NCBI GenBank assembly: GCA_963822355.1
Contig: CAWGHI010000007.1
Location: 12,676 to 76,675, forward strand
From: an uncultured Flavobacteriaceae bacterium
Lineage (GTDB): Bacteria > Bacteroidota > Bacteroidia > Flavobacteriales > Flavobacteriaceae
Direction: 5' to 3'
Length of the DNA stretch: 64,000 nt
A program made the position numbers and the translations under genes. This document shows positions 34,121 through 59,816 of the stretch, in pieces (position 1 is the stretch's first letter; each line of letters begins with the position of its first letter). The notes beneath the pieces were generated by a model, which had not been told where the DNA came from, searched no databases, and worked only from the letters and a program-made list of their open reading frames with translations.

Positions 34121-34570
34121 TTATTTATAATTGGGAATTTCTTCTAAAAAATTATAACATTCGTTTTCATTGTCCATTTGGCAATAATAATGTTCCAAAC
34201 CGTTGCTAATCATCAAATATTGTGCATCCAAAGTTAGATTGTATCTGGCAATTTGATCAAAGGTAAGTTGTGTGATTGGGACGGAAGGTGATTTGCATTC
34301 AACAATTAAAAAAATACTTCCATCATTGTTAAAAACTACAACATCATATCTTTTTATAGTATTGTTAAGTTTCAGTTGCTTTTCAACGTTAATAAGGCTT
34401 TTGGGATATTTTTTTTCCTTCAGAAGAAATTGAACAACATGCAAGCGAACCCATTCCTCGGGCGTGAGTACCACGAATTTTTTTCTTATTTCATCAAAAA
34501 CCAACGTTTTATTTTCGCTACTTTTGAAGCGAAAGGAATAAGTTGGATAGTTGAGTTTTTGCATACGCAA
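34121..34570 (-). CDS. Stand-alone type I restriction enzyme HsdR N-terminal-domain protein
   Basis: TPEEWVR, YP....VEK, RYDVVV, IVECK and QIARYN PD-(D/E)xK-type pattern; 149 aa with no helicase domain. Confidence 0.85.
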   Translation of the reverse strand: MRMQKLNYPTYSFRFKSSENKTLVFDEIRKKFVVLTPEEWVRLHVVQFLLKEKKYPKSLINVEKQLKLNNTIKRYDVVVFNNDGSIFLIVECKSPSVPITQLTFDQIARYNLTLDAQYLMISNGLEHYYCQMDNENECYNFLEEIPNYK

Positions 34571-34572
34571 AG

Positions 34573-34650
34573 ATTCAAAATTTAAATTTCAAAATTCAAA
34601 ATTAAACTTCTTCAATCTAAAATCTTCAATCGTTAATCGTAAATCATCAA
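34573..34650 (+). repeat. Degenerate 7-mer tandem array (nnnAATC) abutting the holA ATG
   Basis: TTCAATC TAAAATC TTCAATC GTTAATC GTAAATC ATCAAATG, preceded by AAATTCA-type units. Confidence 0.75.
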
Positions 34651-35655
34651 ATGCCACTCGACAAAGTAAAATCTATTATTACTGATATTAAAAACGGAAA
34701 CACTAAACCCATTTATTTTTTGATGGGAGAGGAGCCGTATTATATTGATGGTATTTCAAAATACATTGAAGAAAATGTTTTGTCTGAGGAAGAAAAAGGT
34801 TTCAACCAAATGATACTTTATGGCCGTGATGTAACGGTAGAAGACATCATCAGCAACGCCAAGCGTTATCCTATGATGGCGGAAAAGCAAGTGATTATAG
34901 TGAAGGAAGCCCAAGATCTTTCTAGAACAATTGAAAATTTGGTGGGCTATGCCGATAATCCACAACCAACAACCATTTTGGTTTTTTGCTACAAATACAA
35001 AACTTTGGACAAGCGAAAAAAACTGGCTAAAACTGTCGCAAAATCAGGCGTTGTTTTTGAAAGTAAAAAACTGTATGATGACAAAGTACCTGATTGGATT
35101 AAACGTGTACTTGCCGGAAAAGGTTACACAATCACTCCCAAAGCCGCACAAATGCTTGTGGAATTTCTTGGGAATGATCTCAGTAAAGTGAATAACGAGC
35201 TTGAAAAATTACAACTTATTATAAAGCCCGGAGAACAAATAACGCCACAAATTATTGAAGAGAACATCGGTATCAGTAAGGATTTCAACAATTTTGAACT
35301 ACAGAATGCCATTGGTGAAAAGAATATCAAAAAAGCGTTTGCCATAATCCAATATTTTTCACAGAATCCAAAAAACAATCCTTTGGTGATGACGGTGGCT
35401 TTGCTTTACAGTTTCTTTTCCAAACTCTTAAAATACCACGCACTTTCAAATAAAGGCGACGCGGCAAAGGTTTTGGGGGTAAATCCGTATTTTGTTAAAG
35501 ATTATCAAACTGCCGCCCGAAATTATCCGATGAAAAAAGTTAGTGCCATCATAGCCGCAATACGTGAAGTTGATATGAAAAGTAAGGGCGTGGGCGCCGC
35601 AAATCTTCCACAGGGCGATTTACTGAAGGAGTTGTTGGTAAAGATTTTTAATTAG
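34651..35655 (+). CDS. holA: DNA polymerase III subunit delta
   Basis: IYFLMGEE.YYID, AKRYPMMA, NELEKL, GISKDFN.FEL and D.KSKG motifs. Confidence 0.93.
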   Translation: MPLDKVKSIITDIKNGNTKPIYFLMGEEPYYIDGISKYIEENVLSEEEKGFNQMILYGRDVTVEDIISNAKRYPMMAEKQVIIVKEAQDLSRTIENLVGYADNPQPTTILVFCYKYKTLDKRKKLAKTVAKSGVVFESKKLYDDKVPDWIKRVLAGKGYTITPKAAQMLVEFLGNDLSKVNNELEKLQLIIKPGEQITPQIIEENIGISKDFNNFELQNAIGEKNIKKAFAIIQYFSQNPKNNPLVMTVALLYSFFSKLLKYHALSNKGDAAKVLGVNPYFVKDYQTAARNYPMKKVSAIIAAIREVDMKSKGVGAANLPQGDLLKELLVKIFN

Positions 35656-35687: not shown

Positions 35688-36065
35688 CTATTTCTTGTCC
35701 ACAGAATACTTGCCAGGCCCCAAAAGCGCAATTGCCGTAAAGGCCAATAAAAAAAGAAGGGCCTTTTCTTTTGTTCCCAAGGGATCTGCGGCGTGAACAA
35801 TAAAAGCTGCTACGGCCATTGTTAGGATAACGGGAATTGCGGACAGCCTTGTTTTAAATCCAATTATTATAAGAATAGGAAAAAGGACTTCACATAAAAC
35901 TGCTAATATTAAAGTAGCTGGTTCGCCGATGCCAATGGGGTCCCCAAATGAAAAATCGCCCGAAAGCATCCTCATAAGTTTTGGTATTCCATGGGTGAGC
36001 ATTAAGCCCCCGAAACCTAAACGTAGTAAAAGCAATCCTATATTTTGAATGTTTGTGTTGTTCAT
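35688..36065 (-). CDS. DoxX-family membrane protein
   Basis: LLLRL..G.LM..HG..K, four TM segments, GPGKYSVD. Confidence 0.9.
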   Translation of the reverse strand: MNNTNIQNIGLLLLRLGFGGLMLTHGIPKLMRMLSGDFSFGDPIGIGEPATLILAVLCEVLFPILIIIGFKTRLSAIPVILTMAVAAFIVHAADPLGTKEKALLFLLAFTAIALLGPGKYSVDKK

Positions 36066-36162
36066 TTATATCAATTGGAATTAAAAACGAATATAGTAAA
36101 CTATTCATTCATATTTAGTAGTAACCAATTATTAAAAAATTGCTATAGCCTTATTTTAAGTG

Positions 36163-36170
36163 TATTTTTG
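36163..36170 (+). promoter_or_regulatory. Bacteroidota -7 box (TATTTTTG) for the men cluster
   Basis: TAnnTTTG match 18 nt upstream of the menA ATG. Confidence 0.5.
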
Positions 36171-36188
36171 TCTTCATAAAAATATGGA

Positions 36189-37130
36189 ATGACAAAAATT
36201 AAAGCTTGGTTCGCGGCGGCAAGATTGCGAACACTTCCGCTTTCGGTTTCAGGGATTATTGTTGGAGCTTCTGTTGGAAATAAAATTTTAAAACAACCAA
36301 ACCTTGACTTGAATTTTAATGGAAATTCTTCTACCCATTTTTGGCAATCCAGTATTTTTTGGCTTGCAATATTGGTAACTATAGGATTTCAGGTTTTATC
36401 CAACTTTGCGAACGATTACGGCGATGGCGTTCGTGGAACTGATGCCAAAAGAGAAGGCGAAAAACGCATGGTAGCATCGGGAATAATTTCGCCGAAACAA
36501 ATGAAAATAGGAATGATTATTACTGGAATCATCACGTTTTTTTTTGCAACTATTTTAATTTTTATAGCTTTCGGAAATGAAAACTTCATCATTTCCTTTA
36601 TTTTTTTCAACCTCACAATACTTTCAATAATTGCTGCAGTAAAGTACACGGTCGGTAAAAAAGCATACGGATATTCAGGCTTGGGCGATATTTTCGTATT
36701 TCTGTTTTTTGGTCTTTTGAGCGTGTTGGGAAGTTACTTTTTATTCACACACTCTTTAAAATGGCAGTTCGTACTGCCTGCCACGGCAATTGGTTGTTTT
36801 AGCACTGCGGTACTAAATCTAAACAATATGCGCGATATTGAAAATGATGCTGCTGCGGGTAAAAACACATTGGTTGTTAAGTTGGGAATGAATAAAGCTA
36901 AAATATACCACACCTTTTTATTGCTTTCAGGAATGCTTTGTGCTGTTATTTACACGATCATCAACTTTCGGGAGCCCCTACAGTTCATAATATTTATTGC
37001 TTTCATTCCTTTCTTCTTAAATATAAAAACGGTTTTTAAAAACAAATCCCCGATGTTGCTCGATGGCGAATTGAAAAAGGTTGCGTTAAGCACTTTTCTG
37101 TTTGCGATCTTGTTTAGTATCTTTATGTGA
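36189..37130 (+). CDS. menA: 1,4-dihydroxy-2-naphthoate polyprenyltransferase
   Basis: RLRTLPLS, NFANDYGDG..GTD, YGYSGLGD and NNMRD..ND...GK.TL motifs. Confidence 0.95.
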   Translation: MTKIKAWFAAARLRTLPLSVSGIIVGASVGNKILKQPNLDLNFNGNSSTHFWQSSIFWLAILVTIGFQVLSNFANDYGDGVRGTDAKREGEKRMVASGIISPKQMKIGMIITGIITFFFATILIFIAFGNENFIISFIFFNLTILSIIAAVKYTVGKKAYGYSGLGDIFVFLFFGLLSVLGSYFLFTHSLKWQFVLPATAIGCFSTAVLNLNNMRDIENDAAAGKNTLVVKLGMNKAKIYHTFLLLSGMLCAVIYTIINFREPLQFIIFIAFIPFFLNIKTVFKNKSPMLLDGELKKVALSTFLFAILFSIFM

Positions 37131-37141
37131 AAAATAAAAAC

Positions 37142-37822
37142 ATGAAAATTACATTTTACGGACAAAATGCTTTAGGAATTGAAATAAAAGGAAAACACAT
37201 TTTGGTAGATCCCTTTATTTCGGGAAATGATCTTTCAAAAGATAAAATTGATATCAATAAACTAAAAGCAGATTATATCCTTTTAACCCACGCACACCAA
37301 GATCATACATTGGACGCAGAAGCTATTGCGAAAAAAACAGGAGCTATTATTGTGAGCAATTATGAAATCACAAACCATTACGAAGCAAAGGGAATAGAAG
37401 TTCACCCCATGAACCACGGCGGAAGCTGGAAATTTGAATTTGGAAAAGTGAAATATGTAAACGCAATTCACACAAGTTCATTTCCCGACGGCAGTTACGG
37501 CGGTCAACCTGGCGGTTTTGTAATTGAGGGTGAACACAAAAACATTTACATCGCCGGCGATACTGCTTTAATGATGGATATGAAACTCATCCCGATGCAC
37601 ACAAAATTGGATTTGGCGATTCTCCCAATCGGCGATAATTTCACTATGGGAATTGACGATGCCATTATAGCAAGCGATTTTGTGCAATGCGATAAAGTTT
37701 TGGGCGTACATTACGATACTTTCGGTTACATCGAAATTGACCACGAAGAGGCTAAACGTAAGTTTTATGACGCCAATAAGGATTTGATGTTGCTTGAAAT
37801 TGGCGAATCTATAGAATTATAA
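37142..37822 (+). CDS. UPF0173-type metal-dependent hydrolase (MBL fold)
   Basis: DPFI, THAHQDH, AIHTSS, IYIAGDT, LPIGDNFTMG and VHYDTF motifs. Confidence 0.9.
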   Translation: MKITFYGQNALGIEIKGKHILVDPFISGNDLSKDKIDINKLKADYILLTHAHQDHTLDAEAIAKKTGAIIVSNYEITNHYEAKGIEVHPMNHGGSWKFEFGKVKYVNAIHTSSFPDGSYGGQPGGFVIEGEHKNIYIAGDTALMMDMKLIPMHTKLDLAILPIGDNFTMGIDDAIIASDFVQCDKVLGVHYDTFGYIEIDHEEAKRKFYDANKDLMLLEIGESIEL

Positions 37823-37837
37823 AAGTACAGTTGGAAT

Positions 37838-37874
37838 ATCAGATTGTTAGATGGTTGGATTTTTAGATAATTAG
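37838..37874 (+). repeat. Left 8-mer array / left arm of the inverted repeat flanking the four-helix-bundle gene
   Basis: TCAGATTG TTAGATGG TTGGATTT TTAGATAA. Bases 37842-37861 are complementary to 38226-38245. Confidence 0.85.
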
Positions 37875-37876
37875 AA

Positions 37877-38227
37877 ATGCATAGGTTTAAGGATTTGGAA
37901 ATTTGGAAACAAAGTAGATTGTTTTGTAAAGATATTTATGAAATTACCGCTACATTTCCAGAAGCTGAAAAATTTGGACTTACCAGTCAATTAAGGCGTG
38001 CAAGCATATCAATACCTTCAAATATTGCTGAAGGAGCATCCAGAAAATCAAATAAAGACTTATCAAGATTTTTGGAAATAACAATAGGTTCTTGTTACGA
38101 AATTGAAACCCAATTACTAATAGCTAATGATTTGGGATTTATAAAAGAAGAAAATTTGAACCCATTACTTTTAAAACTGGAAGGAATTGTAAAAATGACT
38201 TCAAAATTTAAATCAACCCTAAAATAA
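37877..38227 (+). CDS. Four-helix-bundle protein (23S rRNA-IVP / TIGR02436 family)
   Basis: F.DL.IWK.S, FP..EKFGLTSQLRRA..SI.SNIAEG..R and GS.YE.ETQL motifs. Confidence 0.93.
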   Translation: MHRFKDLEIWKQSRLFCKDIYEITATFPEAEKFGLTSQLRRASISIPSNIAEGASRKSNKDLSRFLEITIGSCYEIETQLLIANDLGFIKEENLNPLLLKLEGIVKMTSKFKSTLK

Positions 38228-38264
38228 TCCAACCATCTAATAATCCAAAAATCTAGTAATCCAA
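38225..38264 (+). repeat. Right 8-mer array / right arm of the inverted repeat
   Basis: TAATCCAA CCATCTAA TAATCCAA AAATCTAG TAATCCAA, between the four-helix-bundle stop and the menC TTG start. Confidence 0.85.
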
Positions 38265-38265
38265 A

Positions 38266-39318
38266 TTGACAGCTTCTTATCATAAACACATCCTAAACTT
38301 CAAAAATCCCAGCGGCACTTCCCGCGGAGTCTTGAAAACCAAAGAAACTTATTTTCTTATTCTTAAAACTGAAGAAAAAGTAGGAGTGGGAGAGTGCGGC
38401 CTTCTGCGTGGGTTGAGCATCGACGATCGCCCCGATTATGAAAAAAAATTAAAGGCCGTCTGCGAGAAAATCGATTTTGGTTTAAATGAAGAAAATCTTT
38501 ACGAAGCTTTAACTGAGTTTCCCTCAATACAATTTGGAGTTGAAACCGCTTTTAAATCGTTGCAGTCAAAAAATCCTTTTGAATTATATCCTTCGGAATT
38601 TACACGTGGCGAAGCAGCAATTCCAATAAACGGTTTGGTTTGGATGGGTGATACCATTTTTATGAAAGAACAGATTTCAGAAAAATTGAAACAAGGTTTC
38701 ACTTGCATAAAAATGAAAATCGGTGCCATCGATTTTAAAACCGAAGTCGAACTTTTAAAATCTATTCGAAAAGAATTCTCAGCTTCCGAGGTAGAATTAC
38801 GAGTTGATGCAAACGGCGCATTTTCACCCAAAGAAGCTTTGGAAAAATTGAAAGTGCTTTCAGATTTGAAATTACATTCCATTGAACAACCCATAAAACA
38901 AGGGCAATGGCAGGAAATGGCACGGCTTTGCGAAGAAACTCCATTGCCAATTGCGTTAGATGAAGAATTGATCGGAATCTTTTCCGAGGAAGATAAAAAT
39001 AATTTGCTCGAAACCATAAAACCCCAATATATAATCCTCAAACCATCGTTAATTGGTGGGTTTCGCGGAAGCGATCGCTGGATAAATCTCGCGGAAAAAC
39101 ACAATGCAGGTTGGTGGATTACTTCCGCTTTGGAAAGTAATGTGGGTTTGAACGCAATTTCGCAATATACATTTACAAAAAATAGTAAATTGCCACAAGG
39201 TTTGGGAACGGGCAGTCTTTACACAAATAACATTGCAAGTCCGCTGGAAGTTTCAAACGGAGAATTAAAAATAAATCCGAATACCAAATGGGATTTCAAT
39301 ATGAAAACTTTCAATTAA
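38266..39318 (+). CDS. menC: o-succinylbenzoate synthase
   Basis: Enolase superfamily KMKIG, DANG, EQP and DEE motifs; men context; TTG start. Confidence 0.88.
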   Translation: MTASYHKHILNFKNPSGTSRGVLKTKETYFLILKTEEKVGVGECGLLRGLSIDDRPDYEKKLKAVCEKIDFGLNEENLYEALTEFPSIQFGVETAFKSLQSKNPFELYPSEFTRGEAAIPINGLVWMGDTIFMKEQISEKLKQGFTCIKMKIGAIDFKTEVELLKSIRKEFSASEVELRVDANGAFSPKEALEKLKVLSDLKLHSIEQPIKQGQWQEMARLCEETPLPIALDEELIGIFSEEDKNNLLETIKPQYIILKPSLIGGFRGSDRWINLAEKHNAGWWITSALESNVGLNAISQYTFTKNSKLPQGLGTGSLYTNNIASPLEVSNGELKINPNTKWDFNMKTFN

Positions 39319-39353
39319 AACTTATTTTTCTCACAAATCAATAATCACAATAA

Positions 39354-40325
39354 ATGTATATAAAACAAGCTTTTAAGTCCCTACACGAATGGTGGCGCTA
39401 TTTAATAGGTTTCATCATAATATTTGTCGCCAGCCAAATAGGAACCATCCCTCTAATTGTTGCAGTACTAGTAAAAATCCTTTCGGAAGGCGGAAGTATG
39501 GATTCCATTCAGGACCCAAATGTTATGATGACAGTATTAGATTCCAACCTTACCCTATTTTTGATGCTGCTCAGTTTTGCCGTAGGTTTGCTGGCTGTAT
39601 ATTTGGTTGTCCGCTTCTTTCATAAACAACCTTTTGTGGAACTTACAACATCTCGAAAAAAAACAGATTGGGGCCGAATATTTTTTGGCTTCGGGCTTAT
39701 AACAATAACTACCATTGTTGTCACTGGTTTGGATTATTACAGCAATCCCGATGATTATGTGCTTCAATTTGATTTGGTTCCATTTATAATTCTCACCGTG
39801 ATTGCAGTAATTATGATCCCCTTACAAACAAGTTTTGAGGAATATCTTTTTCGGGGTTATTTGATGCAGGGAATTGGCGTTTTGGCAAAAAACAAATGGT
39901 TGCCACTTCTTATAACTTCGGTAGTTTTTGGCGCGCTTCATTTGGCAAATCCGGAAGTTGATAAATTGGGTAATATTATTATGATTTACTACATAGGAAC
40001 TGGTTTTTTCCTCGGAATCATGACGCTAATGGATGAAGGTATGGAACTGGCGCTTGGTTTTCACGCGGGTAATAACCTAATTTCCGCACTTTTGGTTACC
40101 GCAGATTGGACCGTCTTTAAAACCAATTCTATTTTAAAGGATGTTTCAGAACCTTCTACAGGTTTTGATGTAGTTGTACCTGTGCTGATTTTATATCCAA
40201 TTTTTTTGTTTATAATGGCTTACCGTTATAAATGGAAGGATTGGAGTGGCAAGCTTTTCGGCAAAGTGGAAGAATCCATTGTTATTACTGAGGAAAAGGA
40301 ACCGAATGAAAGTTTAATTGAATAG
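39354..40325 (+). CDS. CPBP (Abi/CAAX) family intramembrane metalloprotease
   Basis: EEYLFRG, FGALH and H..NN motifs; multiple TM segments. Confidence 0.9.
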   Translation: MYIKQAFKSLHEWWRYLIGFIIIFVASQIGTIPLIVAVLVKILSEGGSMDSIQDPNVMMTVLDSNLTLFLMLLSFAVGLLAVYLVVRFFHKQPFVELTTSRKKTDWGRIFFGFGLITITTIVVTGLDYYSNPDDYVLQFDLVPFIILTVIAVIMIPLQTSFEEYLFRGYLMQGIGVLAKNKWLPLLITSVVFGALHLANPEVDKLGNIIMIYYIGTGFFLGIMTLMDEGMELALGFHAGNNLISALLVTADWTVFKTNSILKDVSEPSTGFDVVVPVLILYPIFLFIMAYRYKWKDWSGKLFGKVEESIVITEEKEPNESLIE

Positions 40326-41404
40326 TGAAACCGTTATTGCATCCCAATTTTAAATTGAATGGCGAAATATTTTCTTCTGCGGAAGATTTAAAATTTCGCA
40401 CAAAACAAATTGTTGAAAATAAGGCGGACGATCAAAGTGCCATTGGAAAATTTATTTTGGAATGGTTGGATGACAATTATTTTATTAAGGTAAAAACCTC
40501 CGGATCCACTGGTTTTCCTAAGGAAATAAAACTTCAAAAAAAGCACGTTTTTCAAAGTGCAATTGCTACAGTTACTTATTTCGATTTAAGGGAAAACACT
40601 AAAGCATTGCTATGTCTTTCTTCGGAATATATTGCAGGTAAAATGATGTTGGTTCGGGCAATGACTGCGGGTTGGGATTTGCAAACGGTTGCACCGGAAA
40701 AGAACCCACTGGAACATATTGTTGGGGAATTTGATTTTACCGCAATGGTTCCCTACCAAGTTTTCCATTCCTTGCCAAATTTGGACAAAGTGAAAAAATT
40801 GATTATTGGCGGAGCGGCTGTACCTTCAGAATTGGAACAACAATTACAAAAGTTGAAAACTAAAGTATTTGTCACATACGGAATGACCGAAACCATAAGT
40901 CACATCGCAGTTCGCCCACTAAATGGAAAAGAAAAATCCACTGTTTTTTCAGCACTTCCAAAAGTAACATTTTCACTGGGAGAAAATGGATGTCTACAAA
41001 TTCATGCCCCGGAAATTTCTGAAGAAACCATTGTAACGAATGATATTGTTGAATTGCTTTCCCCAACTTCCTTTATATTTTTGGGTAGAGCAGACAATGT
41101 GATTAACACCGGAGGAGTAAAAGTGCACCCCGAAATGGTGGAAAAAAAGCTTTCCCTTCATATAAAACAACCTTTTTTTATTGCTTCAGAAAAAGATGAT
41201 GCTTTGGGAGAACGGGTAATCTTAATAATTGAGAGTGAAAAACAATTGAGATTGGAAGATTATTCCGAAGCTTTTAAAACACTTTCCGATTATGAAAAAC
41301 CGAAGAAAATCTATACTACAGCCCAATTTGTTTATACCGAAACTGGAAAGATAAAAAGGAATGAAGTGTTGAAAAAAATTAAACCTGAATTACCCCCAAA
41401 TTAA
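40325..41404 (+). CDS. menE: o-succinylbenzoate-CoA ligase (AMP-binding)
   Basis: TSGSTG.PK, YGMTET and GRADNVINTGG.K.HPE motifs; men context. Confidence 0.82.
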   Translation: MKPLLHPNFKLNGEIFSSAEDLKFRTKQIVENKADDQSAIGKFILEWLDDNYFIKVKTSGSTGFPKEIKLQKKHVFQSAIATVTYFDLRENTKALLCLSSEYIAGKMMLVRAMTAGWDLQTVAPEKNPLEHIVGEFDFTAMVPYQVFHSLPNLDKVKKLIIGGAAVPSELEQQLQKLKTKVFVTYGMTETISHIAVRPLNGKEKSTVFSALPKVTFSLGENGCLQIHAPEISEETIVTNDIVELLSPTSFIFLGRADNVINTGGVKVHPEMVEKKLSLHIKQPFFIASEKDDALGERVILIIESEKQLRLEDYSEAFKTLSDYEKPKKIYTTAQFVYTETGKIKRNEVLKKIKPELPPN

Positions 41405-43022
41405 ATGTCTTCTCAATAGGTGCGTGGTTCGCCGCTTCAATACCCATGGAAATCCATTTTCGCGTATCCAAAGGATCTATCACCGCATCTGTCCAAATTC
41501 TGGAAGCTGCATAATACGGCGAAATTTGACGGTCATAACGTGCTTTTATTTTATCGAACATTTCCTTTTCGTCTTCTTCTGTGATCGTTTCACCTTTTTT
41601 CTTCAATGAAGCTGTTTCAATTTGCAGCAATACTTTTGCAGCACTGTTTCCACTCATTACTGCAAGTTCGGCGCTTGGCCACGCCACAATCAATCGTGGA
41701 TCATAGGCTTTTCCGCACATGGCATAATTTCCTGCTCCGTAACTATTCCCTATTATTATCGTGAATTTTGGAACAACGCTATTGCTAACGGCATTTACCA
41801 TTTTGGCTCCGTCCTTAATAATACCGCCGTGCTCGCTTTTACTTCCTACCATAAATCCGGTAACGTCTTGCAAAAATACCAACGGAATTTTCTTTTGGTT
41901 GCAATTTGCTATAAACCGTGTGGCTTTATCTGCACTGTCGCTGTAAATTACACCACCGAATTGCATTTCGCTGGGTTTGGTTTTTGCTTTTGTGGTTTTT
42001 ACCAATGTGCGCTGGTTTGCAACAATTCCAACGGCCCAACCATCAATCCGGGCGTAACCCGTTAAAATTGTTTGTCCGTAGCCTTCTTTGTATTCTTCAA
42101 AATCGCTATCATCCACGAGTCTTTTTATCACTTCGCGCATGTCGTATTGTTCTGCCCGCGACTTTGGAATTAATCCGTAGATTTCTTCAGGTTTTTCTTT
42201 AGGCTTCACCGCTTTTTCCCGGTTAAATCCGGCTTTGTCAAAATCCCCTATCTTCGAAATAATATTTTTTATTTTGTCGAGTGCATCTTTATCGTCCTTT
42301 GCTTTGTAATCCGTCACGCCGCTAACTTCACAGTGCGTAGTTGCGCCACCAAGCGTTTCGTTATCGATGGTTTCGCCAATAGCAGCTTTCACCAAATAAC
42401 TTCCAGCAAGAAAAATACTTCCGGTTTTGTCAACAATTAGCGCTTCATCGCTCATAATAGGAAGGTAAGCACCTCCGGCCACGCAACTGCCCATCACGGC
42501 TGCAATTTGTGTAATGCCCATACTGCTCATAACGGCATTGTTTCTAAATATTCTTCCGAAGTGTTCTTTATCGGGAAAAATCTCATCCTGCATAGGCAGA
42601 TAAACTCCCGCGCTGTCCACCAAATAAATAATTGGTAACCGGTTTTCGATGGAAATTTCCTGTGCGCGAAGATTCTTTTTTGCGGTAATAGGAAACCAAG
42701 CTCCCGCCTTCACTGTGGCATCATTGGCAACTACAATACATTGTTTGCCTTTCACATACCCAATTTTCACAACCACGCCGCCACCGGGTGCACCGCCATG
42801 TTCTTCATACATTCCATCGCCGGCAAAGGCCCCGATTTCAATACTTGGTTTCTTTTCATCCAGTAAATATGAAATACGCTCGCGCGCCGTGAGTTTTCCT
42901 TGAGAGTGTTGTTTATCTATTCTTTTTTGGCCTCCGCCGAGTTTTACTTTTGCCAGTTTATTATTTAATTCTGAAACCAGCAATTTATTGTGGTCTTCGT
43001 TTTTGTTGAAGTTTAAATCCAT
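41379..43022 (-). CDS. Acyl-CoA carboxylase beta subunit (methylcrotonyl-CoA carboxylase-like)
   Basis: GKLTARERI, NDATVKAG, GSCVAGGAY, LGGA..H and SYGAGNYAMCG motifs. Confidence 0.92.
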   Translation of the reverse strand: MDLNFNKNEDHNKLLVSELNNKLAKVKLGGGQKRIDKQHSQGKLTARERISYLLDEKKPSIEIGAFAGDGMYEEHGGAPGGGVVVKIGYVKGKQCIVVANDATVKAGAWFPITAKKNLRAQEISIENRLPIIYLVDSAGVYLPMQDEIFPDKEHFGRIFRNNAVMSSMGITQIAAVMGSCVAGGAYLPIMSDEALIVDKTGSIFLAGSYLVKAAIGETIDNETLGGATTHCEVSGVTDYKAKDDKDALDKIKNIISKIGDFDKAGFNREKAVKPKEKPEEIYGLIPKSRAEQYDMREVIKRLVDDSDFEEYKEGYGQTILTGYARIDGWAVGIVANQRTLVKTTKAKTKPSEMQFGGVIYSDSADKATRFIANCNQKKIPLVFLQDVTGFMVGSKSEHGGIIKDGAKMVNAVSNSVVPKFTIIIGNSYGAGNYAMCGKAYDPRLIVAWPSAELAVMSGNSAAKVLLQIETASLKKKGETITEEDEKEMFDKIKARYDRQISPYYAASRIWTDAVIDPLDTRKWISMGIEAANHAPIEKTFNLGVIQV

Positions 43023-43065
43023 TGAAATTTATTGTTTGCGCTAAAATACAAAATGTTTTATGTTC

Positions 43066-43107
43066 AAAGTTGAAAGTTGAAAGTTGAAAGTTGAAAGTTG
43101 AAAGTTG
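43066..43107. repeat. Perfect microsatellite (AAAGTTG)x6
   Basis: Six exact 7-bp copies in a divergent intergenic region. Confidence 0.95.
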
Positions 43108-58315: not shown

Positions 58316-58987
58316 CTATTTTAAAAGTTCAACAACCTTTGGAACCCCGGTCGATGCCTTTTCTGCAAAAACGGAAATTCTTTTTGTTTCTGAAATTGAC
58401 GGTTTTGGATCCACAAAATAAATTTGAGCTTCATTTTTGGCATATTGAACCAAGCCAGCTGCGGGATAAACTTGCATGGAAGTACCGACAATTATTACCG
58501 CATCAGCTTTTCCAACTTCTTCAGCTGCAACTTCAATCATCGGCACCATTTCACCGAACCAAACTATATGCGGGCGCAGTTGGTGGTTGTGTTTGCACAA
58601 ATCGCCAAGGTTTAAATCTTTTTTCCAGTCTATAATCAAGTTTTCATCAAAGGTACTTCGTACTTTCAAAAGTTCACCGTGAAGGTGAATTACATTTGTA
58701 CTGCCCGCACGTTCATGCAGATCGTCCACGTTTTGTGTGATTATTGTAACATCGTGTTCTTCTTCAAGTTCGGCCAGAGCAATATGTGCGGCATTTGGCT
58801 GAACCGTTAAAAGTTGTCTTCGACGCTGATTGTAAAAATCCAATACAACGGCGGGATTTCGAGCAAAACCCTCGGGCGAGGCAACTTCCATCACATCGTG
58901 TCCTTCCCAAAGTCCGTCGCTATCCCTAAACGTTTTGATTCCGCTTTCTGCGCTTACTCCGGCGCCTGTTAATACTGTTATTTTCAT
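58316..58987 (-). CDS. cobB: NAD-dependent deacylase (sirtuin)
   Basis: LTGAGVSAESGIKTFR, FYN.RR, TQNVDDLHERAG, LHG, LRPHIVWFGE and GTS..VYPAA motifs. Confidence 0.94.
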   Translation of the reverse strand: MKITVLTGAGVSAESGIKTFRDSDGLWEGHDVMEVASPEGFARNPAVVLDFYNQRRRQLLTVQPNAAHIALAELEEEHDVTIITQNVDDLHERAGSTNVIHLHGELLKVRSTFDENLIIDWKKDLNLGDLCKHNHQLRPHIVWFGEMVPMIEVAAEEVGKADAVIIVGTSMQVYPAAGLVQYAKNEAQIYFVDPKPSISETKRISVFAEKASTGVPKVVELLK

Positions 58988-59035
58988 TTGGATTAACGAT
59001 TGTTGATTTTCGATTGTTGATTTTTGAATTTGTTG
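58988..59035 (-). repeat. Degenerate 7-mer array (nnnAATC) abutting the cobB ATG
   Basis: Minus strand reads AAAAATC AACAATC GAAAATC AACAATC GTTAATC CAAATG. Confidence 0.8.
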
Positions 59036-59092: not shown

Positions 59093-59773
59093 GTGGATAT
59101 TGCATTATTAGAACATCTTCAAACGTATTTGACTGACCGTAGAAAAAATCTTTTTCAAAAAGTACTTTCTGAGCGTACCCGCCATTTCACTGTGGTTACG
59201 GAAGATGTTTACCAACTTCATAATACCAGTGCTGTAATGCGAACCTGCGATGTTTTTGGCATTCAGGATTTGCATGTAGTAGAAGAAAAGGTTAGCAAAC
59301 GGATTGATAAAGAAATTGCGATGGGCGCACAAAAGTGGGTGGATTTCAAGAGATATACTTCAATAAAAAACTGTATTTCAAGCCTTAAAAATTCCGGCTA
59401 CCAAATTATTGCTACCACACCACACGACAATTCCACGTTGCTCCACGAGTTTGATGTTTCAAAAAAGAGTGCTTTTTTATTTGGAAAAGAAATGGAGGGA
59501 CTCAGTGATACGGTGATGGCTGAAGCTGATGGTTTTTTGAAAATCCCCATGTATGGTTTTACGGAAAGCTTGAATATTTCAGTTTCCGCTGCAATTATTT
59601 TGCAAAGCGTAGTTACAAAAATGAAGCAAAGCAATGTAAATTGGCAGCTTTCCGAAGAGGAAAAACTTGAACTTGAAATGCAATGGTTAAAGAAAACAAT
59701 AAAGGCTTCCGATGAAATTATTGAAAGATATTATTCTGAAAATCCCAAATCCCAAATTCCAGATTCCAATTAA
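59093..59773 (+). CDS. TrmH/SpoU-family RNA methyltransferase
   Basis: HNTSAV.R.CD.FG, FG.E..GLS and IPM.GFTESLNISV motifs. Confidence 0.92.
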   Translation: MDIALLEHLQTYLTDRRKNLFQKVLSERTRHFTVVTEDVYQLHNTSAVMRTCDVFGIQDLHVVEEKVSKRIDKEIAMGAQKWVDFKRYTSIKNCISSLKNSGYQIIATTPHDNSTLLHEFDVSKKSAFLFGKEMEGLSDTVMAEADGFLKIPMYGFTESLNISVSAAIILQSVVTKMKQSNVNWQLSEEEKLELEMQWLKKTIKASDEIIERYYSENPKSQIPDSN

Positions 59774-59816
59774 AGTTCAAAAATCTAAAATCGACAATCA
59801 ACAATCGTTAATCAAA
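59740..59816 (+). repeat. Degenerate 7-mer arrays spanning the methyltransferase 3' end and abutting the rdgB ATG
   Basis: AAATCCC AAATCCC AAATTCC AGATTCC ... AAAAATC TAAAATC GACAATC AACAATC GTTAATC AAAATG. Confidence 0.8.

Follow-up and report, generated by a model that had tools for sequence, protein, structure and literature searches.

A four-helix-bundle gene enclosed by inverted octamer arrays within a men operon, and its resemblance to 23S rRNA intervening sequences

We analysed a 64,000-nt stretch of contig CAWGHI010000007.1 from an uncultured Flavobacteriaceae bacterium (assembly GCA_963822355.1); this stretch is the window, and coordinates given without a contig label refer to it. 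In the part considered here, menA (36189-37130) overlaps by 4 nt the gene of a metallo-beta-lactamase-fold hydrolase (37127-37822, plus strand; Pfam Lactamase_B_2, E=9e-20), which is adjacent to menC in 24 congeners. The o-succinylbenzoate synthase-like menC gene lies downstream (38266-39318, plus strand; Pfam MR_MLE_C, E=6e-29, and MenC_N). Between the hydrolase gene and menC is a 116-aa open reading frame (37877-38227, plus strand), which encodes a four-helix-bundle protein of the family named after the intervening sequences (IVSs) of 23S rRNA. Because menA, the hydrolase, menC, a CAAX protease and a menE-like ligase adjoin one another in a Pfam search, an earlier note on this DNA, made from the sequence alone, was fair in placing the gene inside the men operon.

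Arrays of 8-nt units stand on both sides of this ORF. The 5' arm (37830-37875, plus strand) is rich in G, T and A and consists of about six units of the form TTRGAnnn, found by TRF at period 24 (3 x 8) and as inverted repeats; it ends 2 nt from the ATG. The 3' arm (38223-38265, plus strand), rich in C, A and T, consists of five units of the form nnATCYAA (TRF period 8/16, inverted repeat). It overlaps the TAA stop codon of the ORF, abuts the menC TTG at 38266 and makes up the entire menC leader. A repeat search matched the pairing core of the 5' arm (37842-37864) with that of the 3' arm (38223-38245), giving 23 nt of 91% complementarity with a spacing of 358 nt. Within the cores, a 20-nt segment (37842-37861 with 38226-38245) has a single G:T position, which would read as G-U in the sense RNA, and a longer imperfect pairing of 34 nt at 76% runs out to 37875 and 38261. 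Compared with shuffled arms, the flank-flank duplex at this site has z-scores of -4.8 to -6.2 by RNAduplex, the value recorded for the 5' arm being -6.2. Direct reading and the repeat search bear out the earlier description of a 20-bp helix with one G-U pair enclosing the whole 116-aa ORF, and TRF together with direct reading does the same for the 8-nt build of both arms and for a right arm that reaches the menC TTG.

The predicted RNA fold of 37820-38275 has an energy of -96.1 kcal/mol (z=-3.84), and none of 100 shuffled sequences was equally stable. The MFE and centroid structures alike show the long-range stem and an outer helix with its 5' half at 37829-37836 and its 3' half at 38260-38268 (plus strand), the latter holding the menC TTG start codon (38266-38268). 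In this predicted fold the menC start is covered by the 3' arm and the outer helix. Rfam returned no rRNA or other family match in 36000-40000, and a scan of the cassette that used no Bacteroidota promoter model gave no promoter or terminator signal above shuffled expectation. Mismatched positions between arms comprise 45 G:T and 46 A:C pairs, so that there is no G:T excess and no wobble signature of a sense RNA, and within the genus TTAGAT is favoured in 5' arms and ATCCAA in 3' arms. Because of these two observations, selection for perfect pairing in the sense RNA is not demonstrated.

The 116-aa protein matches PF05635 over residues 5-109 (E=1e-38, 132.1 bits against a cut-off of 33.8, 106-position model) and TIGR02436 with 124.4 bits against a cut-off of 24. 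Among solved structures its nearest relative is PDB 2GSC (XCC0516), matched with E=2.7e-24 over residues 6-96, and it is on this sequence relationship that we place it among the four-helix bundles. 2GSC was deposited as five chains of identical sequence and has been described as a homopentameric toroid (PMC4990558). Avd, the accessory protein of diversity-generating retroelements (DGRs), and the PF05635 protein have a related four-helix-bundle pentamer fold (PMC10053308). The protein studied here scores 21.5 bits against the bAvd model PF22296, for which the cut-off is 40, and no reverse transcriptase gene is adjacent, so it does not belong with the DGR Avd proteins; no template/variable repeat pair was found near the cassette. 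PADLOC gave no family at E<=0.01, and the protein does not classify as a known anti-phage defence component. Among orthologues dN/dS is 0.06-0.14 at dS 0.7-1.7, and the protein is under strong purifying selection.

The source genome (3.07 Mb, 38% GC) contains 14 PF05635 loci. By eye and by RNAduplex, complementary arms lie within 90 nt at 10-11 of the 14 copies and within 260 nt at 13-14; at the apparent exceptions the G-rich arm is 110-140 nt further upstream, behind an additional array. Arm sequence is specific to the copy, examples being GTATTGA, GGATGAT, AACTGTGTAATT, AGAGAAA and GATTGAC. When flank-flank duplex energies were ranked over 2921 crudely called genes, PF05635 genes took ranks 7, 10, 12, 14 and 42, the menC-site copy standing 14th with -33.2 against a genome mean of -13.2 (SD 5.2). 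Members of the genus carry 1 to 18 copies, and several pseudogenes occur among them. A MITE or IS-type element was considered for the cassette and rejected: the arms differ in each of the 14 copies, the borders have no target-site duplication and the cassette contains no transposase.

Other small genes with paired flanks were also sought in the same genome. A search for small ORFs bracketed by arrays yielded 25 candidate pairs 250-600 nt apart, all of them spurious 9-mer matches within ordinary genes. The sole other flank-paired small genes were two GIY-YIG genes of about 100 aa (C4:214236-214538 and C4:56185-56520) with GC-rich, REP-like inverted-repeat flanks, one of the two genes adjoining a four-helix-bundle cassette. 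Two identical four-helix-bundle copies, at C2:4300-5100 and C5:24100-24700, are each followed by a 19-unit CCGACAA array; as they lie near contig ends, they may be a recent duplication or an assembly repeat.

The hydrolase|menC junction was compared across 24 congeners. An intact cassette is found in five of them (the source genome, L021, L028, L032 and L031), with 79-92% protein identity to the menC-site copy. Decayed forms comprise a truncated ORF in L020, a 35-aa remnant with arm remnants in L030 and solely a CCAACAAT array in L035. At about 16 of the 24 junctions there are 9-175 nt with other elements: GC-rich REP-like hairpins, a GCAAAGACG hairpin or C-first array hairpins. The AATCCAA array is missing from the menC leaders of congeners without the cassette. 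As a site in its own right, the junction in L016-L043 is a turnover hot spot, holding REP-like GC elements, GCAAAGACG, C-first AATCACA/AATTCCA hairpins, the cassette or a mere 9-10 nt.

The same site is filled in three other genera, Zunongwangia, Patiriisocius and Christiangramia. In the orthologues the arms are still complementary (z -2.9 to -8.3) and built from the same type of unit, with varying numbers of units and 3' arms of 41-236 nt. Because these genera share the site, and given the dN/dS and dS values of the orthologues, insertion at the menC site predates the genus, and loss is frequent. The gene-less junctions that the earlier note had thought to look for in relatives do exist, and they mostly look like losses or replacements because the site is old and shared, the protein is under purifying selection and a decay series is present. 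A local tree of 2.1 kb, itself poorly resolved, rejected a single-origin clade of cassette-bearing congeners (6 changes, AU p=0.01), and recombination may lie behind the scattered carriers on this tree. For the menC lineage we also considered insertion of the gene into the loop of a pre-existing hairpin. This is not supported, because the gene-less array hairpins at the menC junctions of L022, L023, L025 and L029 are C-first, the reverse of the cassette, are built from other units and fall into a short-loop, terminator-like class, and because the arms travel with the gene between the menC and panB sites.

In Flavobacterium, Flagellimonas and several MAGs, genes for proteins 66-78% identical to the menC-site copy stand between panB and a gene of the rluA type. 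Their arms belong to an 8-nt family, TWRGAYTN/NARTCYWA, that is shared with the menC-site arms, and in the protein tree the proteins of the two sites group together in a single supported clade. The unit variants GGAT, AGAT and AGAC covary between the two arms over the menC and panB loci (permutation p=0.008, with relatedness ignored). Comparison of these loci shows that gene and arms have been inherited as one and, over deep time, relocated as one. The panB|rluA junction of the source genome itself (C1:128776-128890) has no ORF, only a G-first hairpin built from TTAGATT/AATCCAA units, which is likely a cassette relic. ORF-less periodic hairpins in the whole genome number 12 G-first and 6 C-first, the C-first hairpins being a distinct short-loop AAATTCCAAA class, and the cassette itself decays into gene-less hairpins. 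The earlier view of the cassette as mobile therefore stands for its lack of a transposase and for relocation over deep time, as seen between the menC and panB lineages, and does not stand for recent mobility at the menC site, against which there are the occupation of the same site in at least three other genera, the strong purifying selection and the decay series.

A search from a 4-sequence alignment, with one genome taken per species, gave 79 relatives from Bacteroidota, Planctomycetota, Desulfobacterota, Verrucomicrobiota, Omnitrophota, Clostridia and Alphaproteobacteria (at least seven phyla). The duplex between the 5' and 3' flanks of the same locus averages -38.3 kcal/mol, against -26.0 kcal/mol for permuted pairs (p=1.2e-12). 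Chance pairing or low complexity is ruled out by this permutation, by the rank of 14 among 2921 genes and by the z-scores of -4.8 to -6.2 against shuffled arms. The proposal that other family members carry inverted flanks has thus held, both at 13-14 of the 14 copies in the source genome and at the 79 loci across phyla. The arms are again tandem units, and the unit is specific to the lineage (GGTTTTC/GAAAACC in a Clostridia MAG, CGTGAAT/ATTCACG in Omnitrophota). Among 145 arms with a TRF array, 131 have a unit of 7 nt (104) or 8 nt (27), and the number of units per arm has a median of 4.3 (IQR 3.6-4.9, the lower end being set by the TRF score threshold). At the median, 24 bp is the length of the best ungapped stem, which ends a median 24 nt 5' of the start codon and begins a median 12 nt 3' of the stop codon; an ungapped stem scoring >=11 within 100 nt was not found at 26 of 78 Bacteroidota loci.

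The design has a consistent polarity and orientation. Forty-three loci, inside and outside Bacteroidota, have a G-rich 5' arm and a C-rich 3' arm, none has the reverse and 20 are mixed. This polarity reads identically on both strands, which makes it a feature of the inverted repeat rather than of gene orientation. As for orientation, 72 cassettes are sense to both neighbours (59 in the wide sample and 13 of 14 in the source genome), and an antisense cassette within a co-directional pair was seen once in the wide sample and not at all in the source genome. In these genomes the PF05635 gene nearly always comes packaged with a pair of inverted 7-8-nt arrays around it. The menC-site locus shows the features of this class: a PF05635 ORF, complementary 7-8-nt arrays that abut its start and stop codons, a G-rich 5' arm and a C-rich 3' arm, and a sense position within a co-directional gene pair.

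Arrays alone are not specific to cassettes, because about 390 intergenic arrays with a period of 7, 8, 14 or 16 occur in the genome without a PF05635 gene. They have many different units, some in up to 20 copies. At period 7 there are 209 intergenic and 125 coding arrays, with only about 12% of the genome being intergenic. Further arrays were noted in the window. A 7-nt-period low-complexity array (34568-34650; CAAAATT, then nnnAATC units) reaches the holA ATG at 34651, and a near-perfect GTTGAAA x6.6 array (43062-43107) stands 40 nt upstream of a 547-aa ORF (41379-43022, minus strand). The leaders of the divergent genes cobB (58316-58987, minus strand) and rdgB (start at about 59816, plus strand) have a GATTAACGATTGTTGATT-type array in common, at 58990-59030 and 59785-59815, in opposite orientation; the two make up a 25-nt inverted repeat with an unrelated SpoU-type methyltransferase gene (59093-59773) inside it. 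Complementary arrays can arise in this way from two like leaders in opposite orientation.

We read the menC-site locus as an IVS-type cassette that rides on transcription of the operon, its arms pairing into a stem of the RNase III type; for this reading, drawn by analogy with the IVSs, we estimate a probability of about 0.5. The cassette is one instance of a widespread heritable unit, consisting of a PF05635 gene in the loop of a long hairpin with 7-8-nt tandem-array arms. It is most likely transcribed within the men operon RNA, because it lies in sense orientation between co-directional host genes, and this orientation, together with the absence of promoter or terminator signals above those of shuffled sequences, indicates expression by read-through from the host operon. 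In the RNA the arms would pair, as in 23S rRNA IVSs, to form a duplex of about 20-34 bp closing at the start and stop codons. By analogy with the Coxiella IVS this duplex would be a substrate of RNase III, the gene for which (rnc) is encoded at C2:854259-854903, and once cleaved the RNA would yield a cassette mRNA separate from the hydrolase and menC cistrons. Pairing or cleavage may plausibly affect menC translation as well; such an effect would be expected because the 3' arm is the whole menC leader and the outer helix holds the menC TTG. Rho prefers C-rich, G-poor unstructured RNA, and we propose that the G-first polarity could be a constraint at the RNA level, in which an early G-rich arm would mask a C-rich, G-poor arm resembling a Rho-loading sequence.

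The same arms could instead be recognition arrays. The encoded protein, as a ring pentamer, would bind about 4-5 of its own tandem units in RNA or DNA and regulate its own expression; the putative bound repeats are (TTGGATTN)5 or its complement and (NAATCCAA)5, solo arrays of like unit might be bound too and make up a regulon, and the complementarity of the arms would be secondary. We think this account unlikely, although it is compatible with the stem reading. The unit counts per arm given above agree with it, as does the homopentameric, five-chain form of the relative 2GSC. The unit family tracks the protein subfamily over the menC and panB sites, and protein identity is correlated with arm k-mer similarity with a rho of 0.22, against 0.07 for control flanks; co-inheritance of gene and arms would, however, produce the protein-arm correlation equally well. 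Of 367 solo arrays, 67 have 8-mers in common with the arms of resident cassettes, with 5.6 matches for each own cassette and 1.7 for each foreign one, but the foreign control includes GC-rich phyla. Similarly, 4-5 units also correspond to about two to three turns of double-stranded RNA, and low unit counts were removed by the TRF score threshold. A further alternative, which we consider improbable, puts the function of the arms at the DNA level, where a hairpin or cruciform, or a product of templated copying, would drive insertion, excision or gene conversion and RNA pairing would be incidental. The lack of a bias of G-U over A-C is what would be expected if neither RNA strand were selected, and the strand symmetry of the polarity makes it a property of the inverted repeat. 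Cassettes relocate along with their arms, near-precise loss of the ORF has left the arms alone at panB|rluA, and the arrays expand and contract rapidly, as seen in the spread of 3' arm lengths among orthologues. Nevertheless, arms that differ between copies do not provide a sequence-specific transposase site, no target-site duplication was seen at the borders and no recombinase lies nearby. A 350-nt spacer is also unfavourable to cruciform extrusion in duplex DNA, the cassette has been kept at one site across genera, and the 72:1 sense orientation and a dN/dS of about 0.1 point to selection at the level of expression.

Alternatively, the arms would be ordinary host leader or spacer arrays, two of which happen to flank a gene in opposed orientation with complementarity as a by-product. 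The abundance of intergenic arrays, the strong enrichment of period 7 between genes and the many arrays that stand before start codons all make such coincidences conceivable; the cobB/rdgB leaders show one around an unrelated methyltransferase gene, and at our locus the menC leader is the 3' arm. On this account, however, the AATCCAA array should not be absent from the menC leaders of cassette-less congeners, and no gene faces outward from the 5' arm for it to lead. Among the 2921 genes, complementary bracketing is moreover specific to the PF05635 family, and it is seen again in phyla whose array sequences are quite different; we regard a chance bracketing as very improbable.

To our knowledge, the S23p/IVP four-helix-bundle family has no known function some 30 years after its discovery in 23S rRNA intervening sequences, and we know of no explanation for the intergenic heptamer arrays of cyanobacteria, Beggiatoaceae, Geobacter and Bacteroidetes. 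The packaging of gene with arrays, its polarity, orientation and selection, and its decay to hairpins tie these two puzzles together. A bolder proposal, which we offer as a long shot, is that PF05635 pentamers would be the protein partners of the heptamer and octamer arrays, each reading about five subfamily-specific units. Each gene would then carry two inverted sites, solo arrays would be relics or targets in trans, and the IVSs of rRNA would be copies that had landed in rRNA. If this were true, PF05635 proteins and the arrays would form a post-transcriptional network. The PF05635 protein, which has no assigned function, gains a testable partner sequence. For annotation, the cassettes explain one kind of hairpin and array found where operon genes meet, and they supply the leader of the downstream host gene, menC in the present case. 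In the literature searched, a gene-in-inverted-arrays unit outside rRNA was not found, in agreement with the earlier note, which named the cassette a candidate for an undescribed system.

Several known systems share parts of this build. In phage T7, early mRNAs have RNase III processing stems between cistrons (Dunn and Studier 1973, cited in PMC4990558); as there, a double-stranded stem in a polycistronic RNA could separate cistrons without a promoter or terminator, but unlike the local T7 hairpins the cassette stem is long-range, is built from tandem units and encloses a whole gene. Likeness to the Avd of diversity-generating retroelements is confined to the related four-helix-bundle pentamer fold (PMC10053308) and a weak bAvd match, whereas the reverse transcriptase and the template/variable repeats of those elements have no counterpart near the menC cassette. 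Arrays of the heptamer TAACTGA have been described in Beggiatoaceae, Cyanobacteria and some Bacteroidetes (PMC4679880), and heptanucleotide elements in Geobacter (PMC2700814); among relatives in the Flavobacteriia, Gramella and Aequorivita have heptamer arrays. The cassette arms resemble these in having 7-nt units between genes, often ending at start codons, and a variable copy number. They differ from the arrays of those reports, which are direct and for which no gene family was named, in being inverted around an ORF.

The closest likeness is to the ORF-bearing 23S rRNA IVSs of Coxiella and Leptospira. In Coxiella burnetii the IVS in helix 45 has a 28-bp terminal stem in which RNase III cuts have been mapped, and tandem GACAGAT heptamers, three to four in number, precede the S23p start codon (PMC4990558). 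As in these IVSs, an S23p/PF05635 gene lies in the loop of an inverted-repeat stem of about 20-28 bp, heptamer-type units stand directly 5' of the start codon, unit number varies between strains, there is no mobility gene and the whole measures about 430-490 nt. Terminal inverted repeats enclose the menC-site element too, in the form of the 23-nt arms of 91% complementarity and the stem of the MFE and centroid folds. The resemblance put forward in the earlier note is therefore one of the same build. The menC cassette, unlike the 23S rRNA IVSs of helix 25 or 45, lies between the protein-coding hydrolase and menC genes of an operon, its 3' arm is also the leader of a host gene, and its ORF is under strong purifying selection whereas that of the Coxiella IVS is decaying. 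RNase III cleavage has been demonstrated for the IVSs and would by analogy extend to the menC cassette, which, being located outside rRNA, we call IVS-like and not an IVS.
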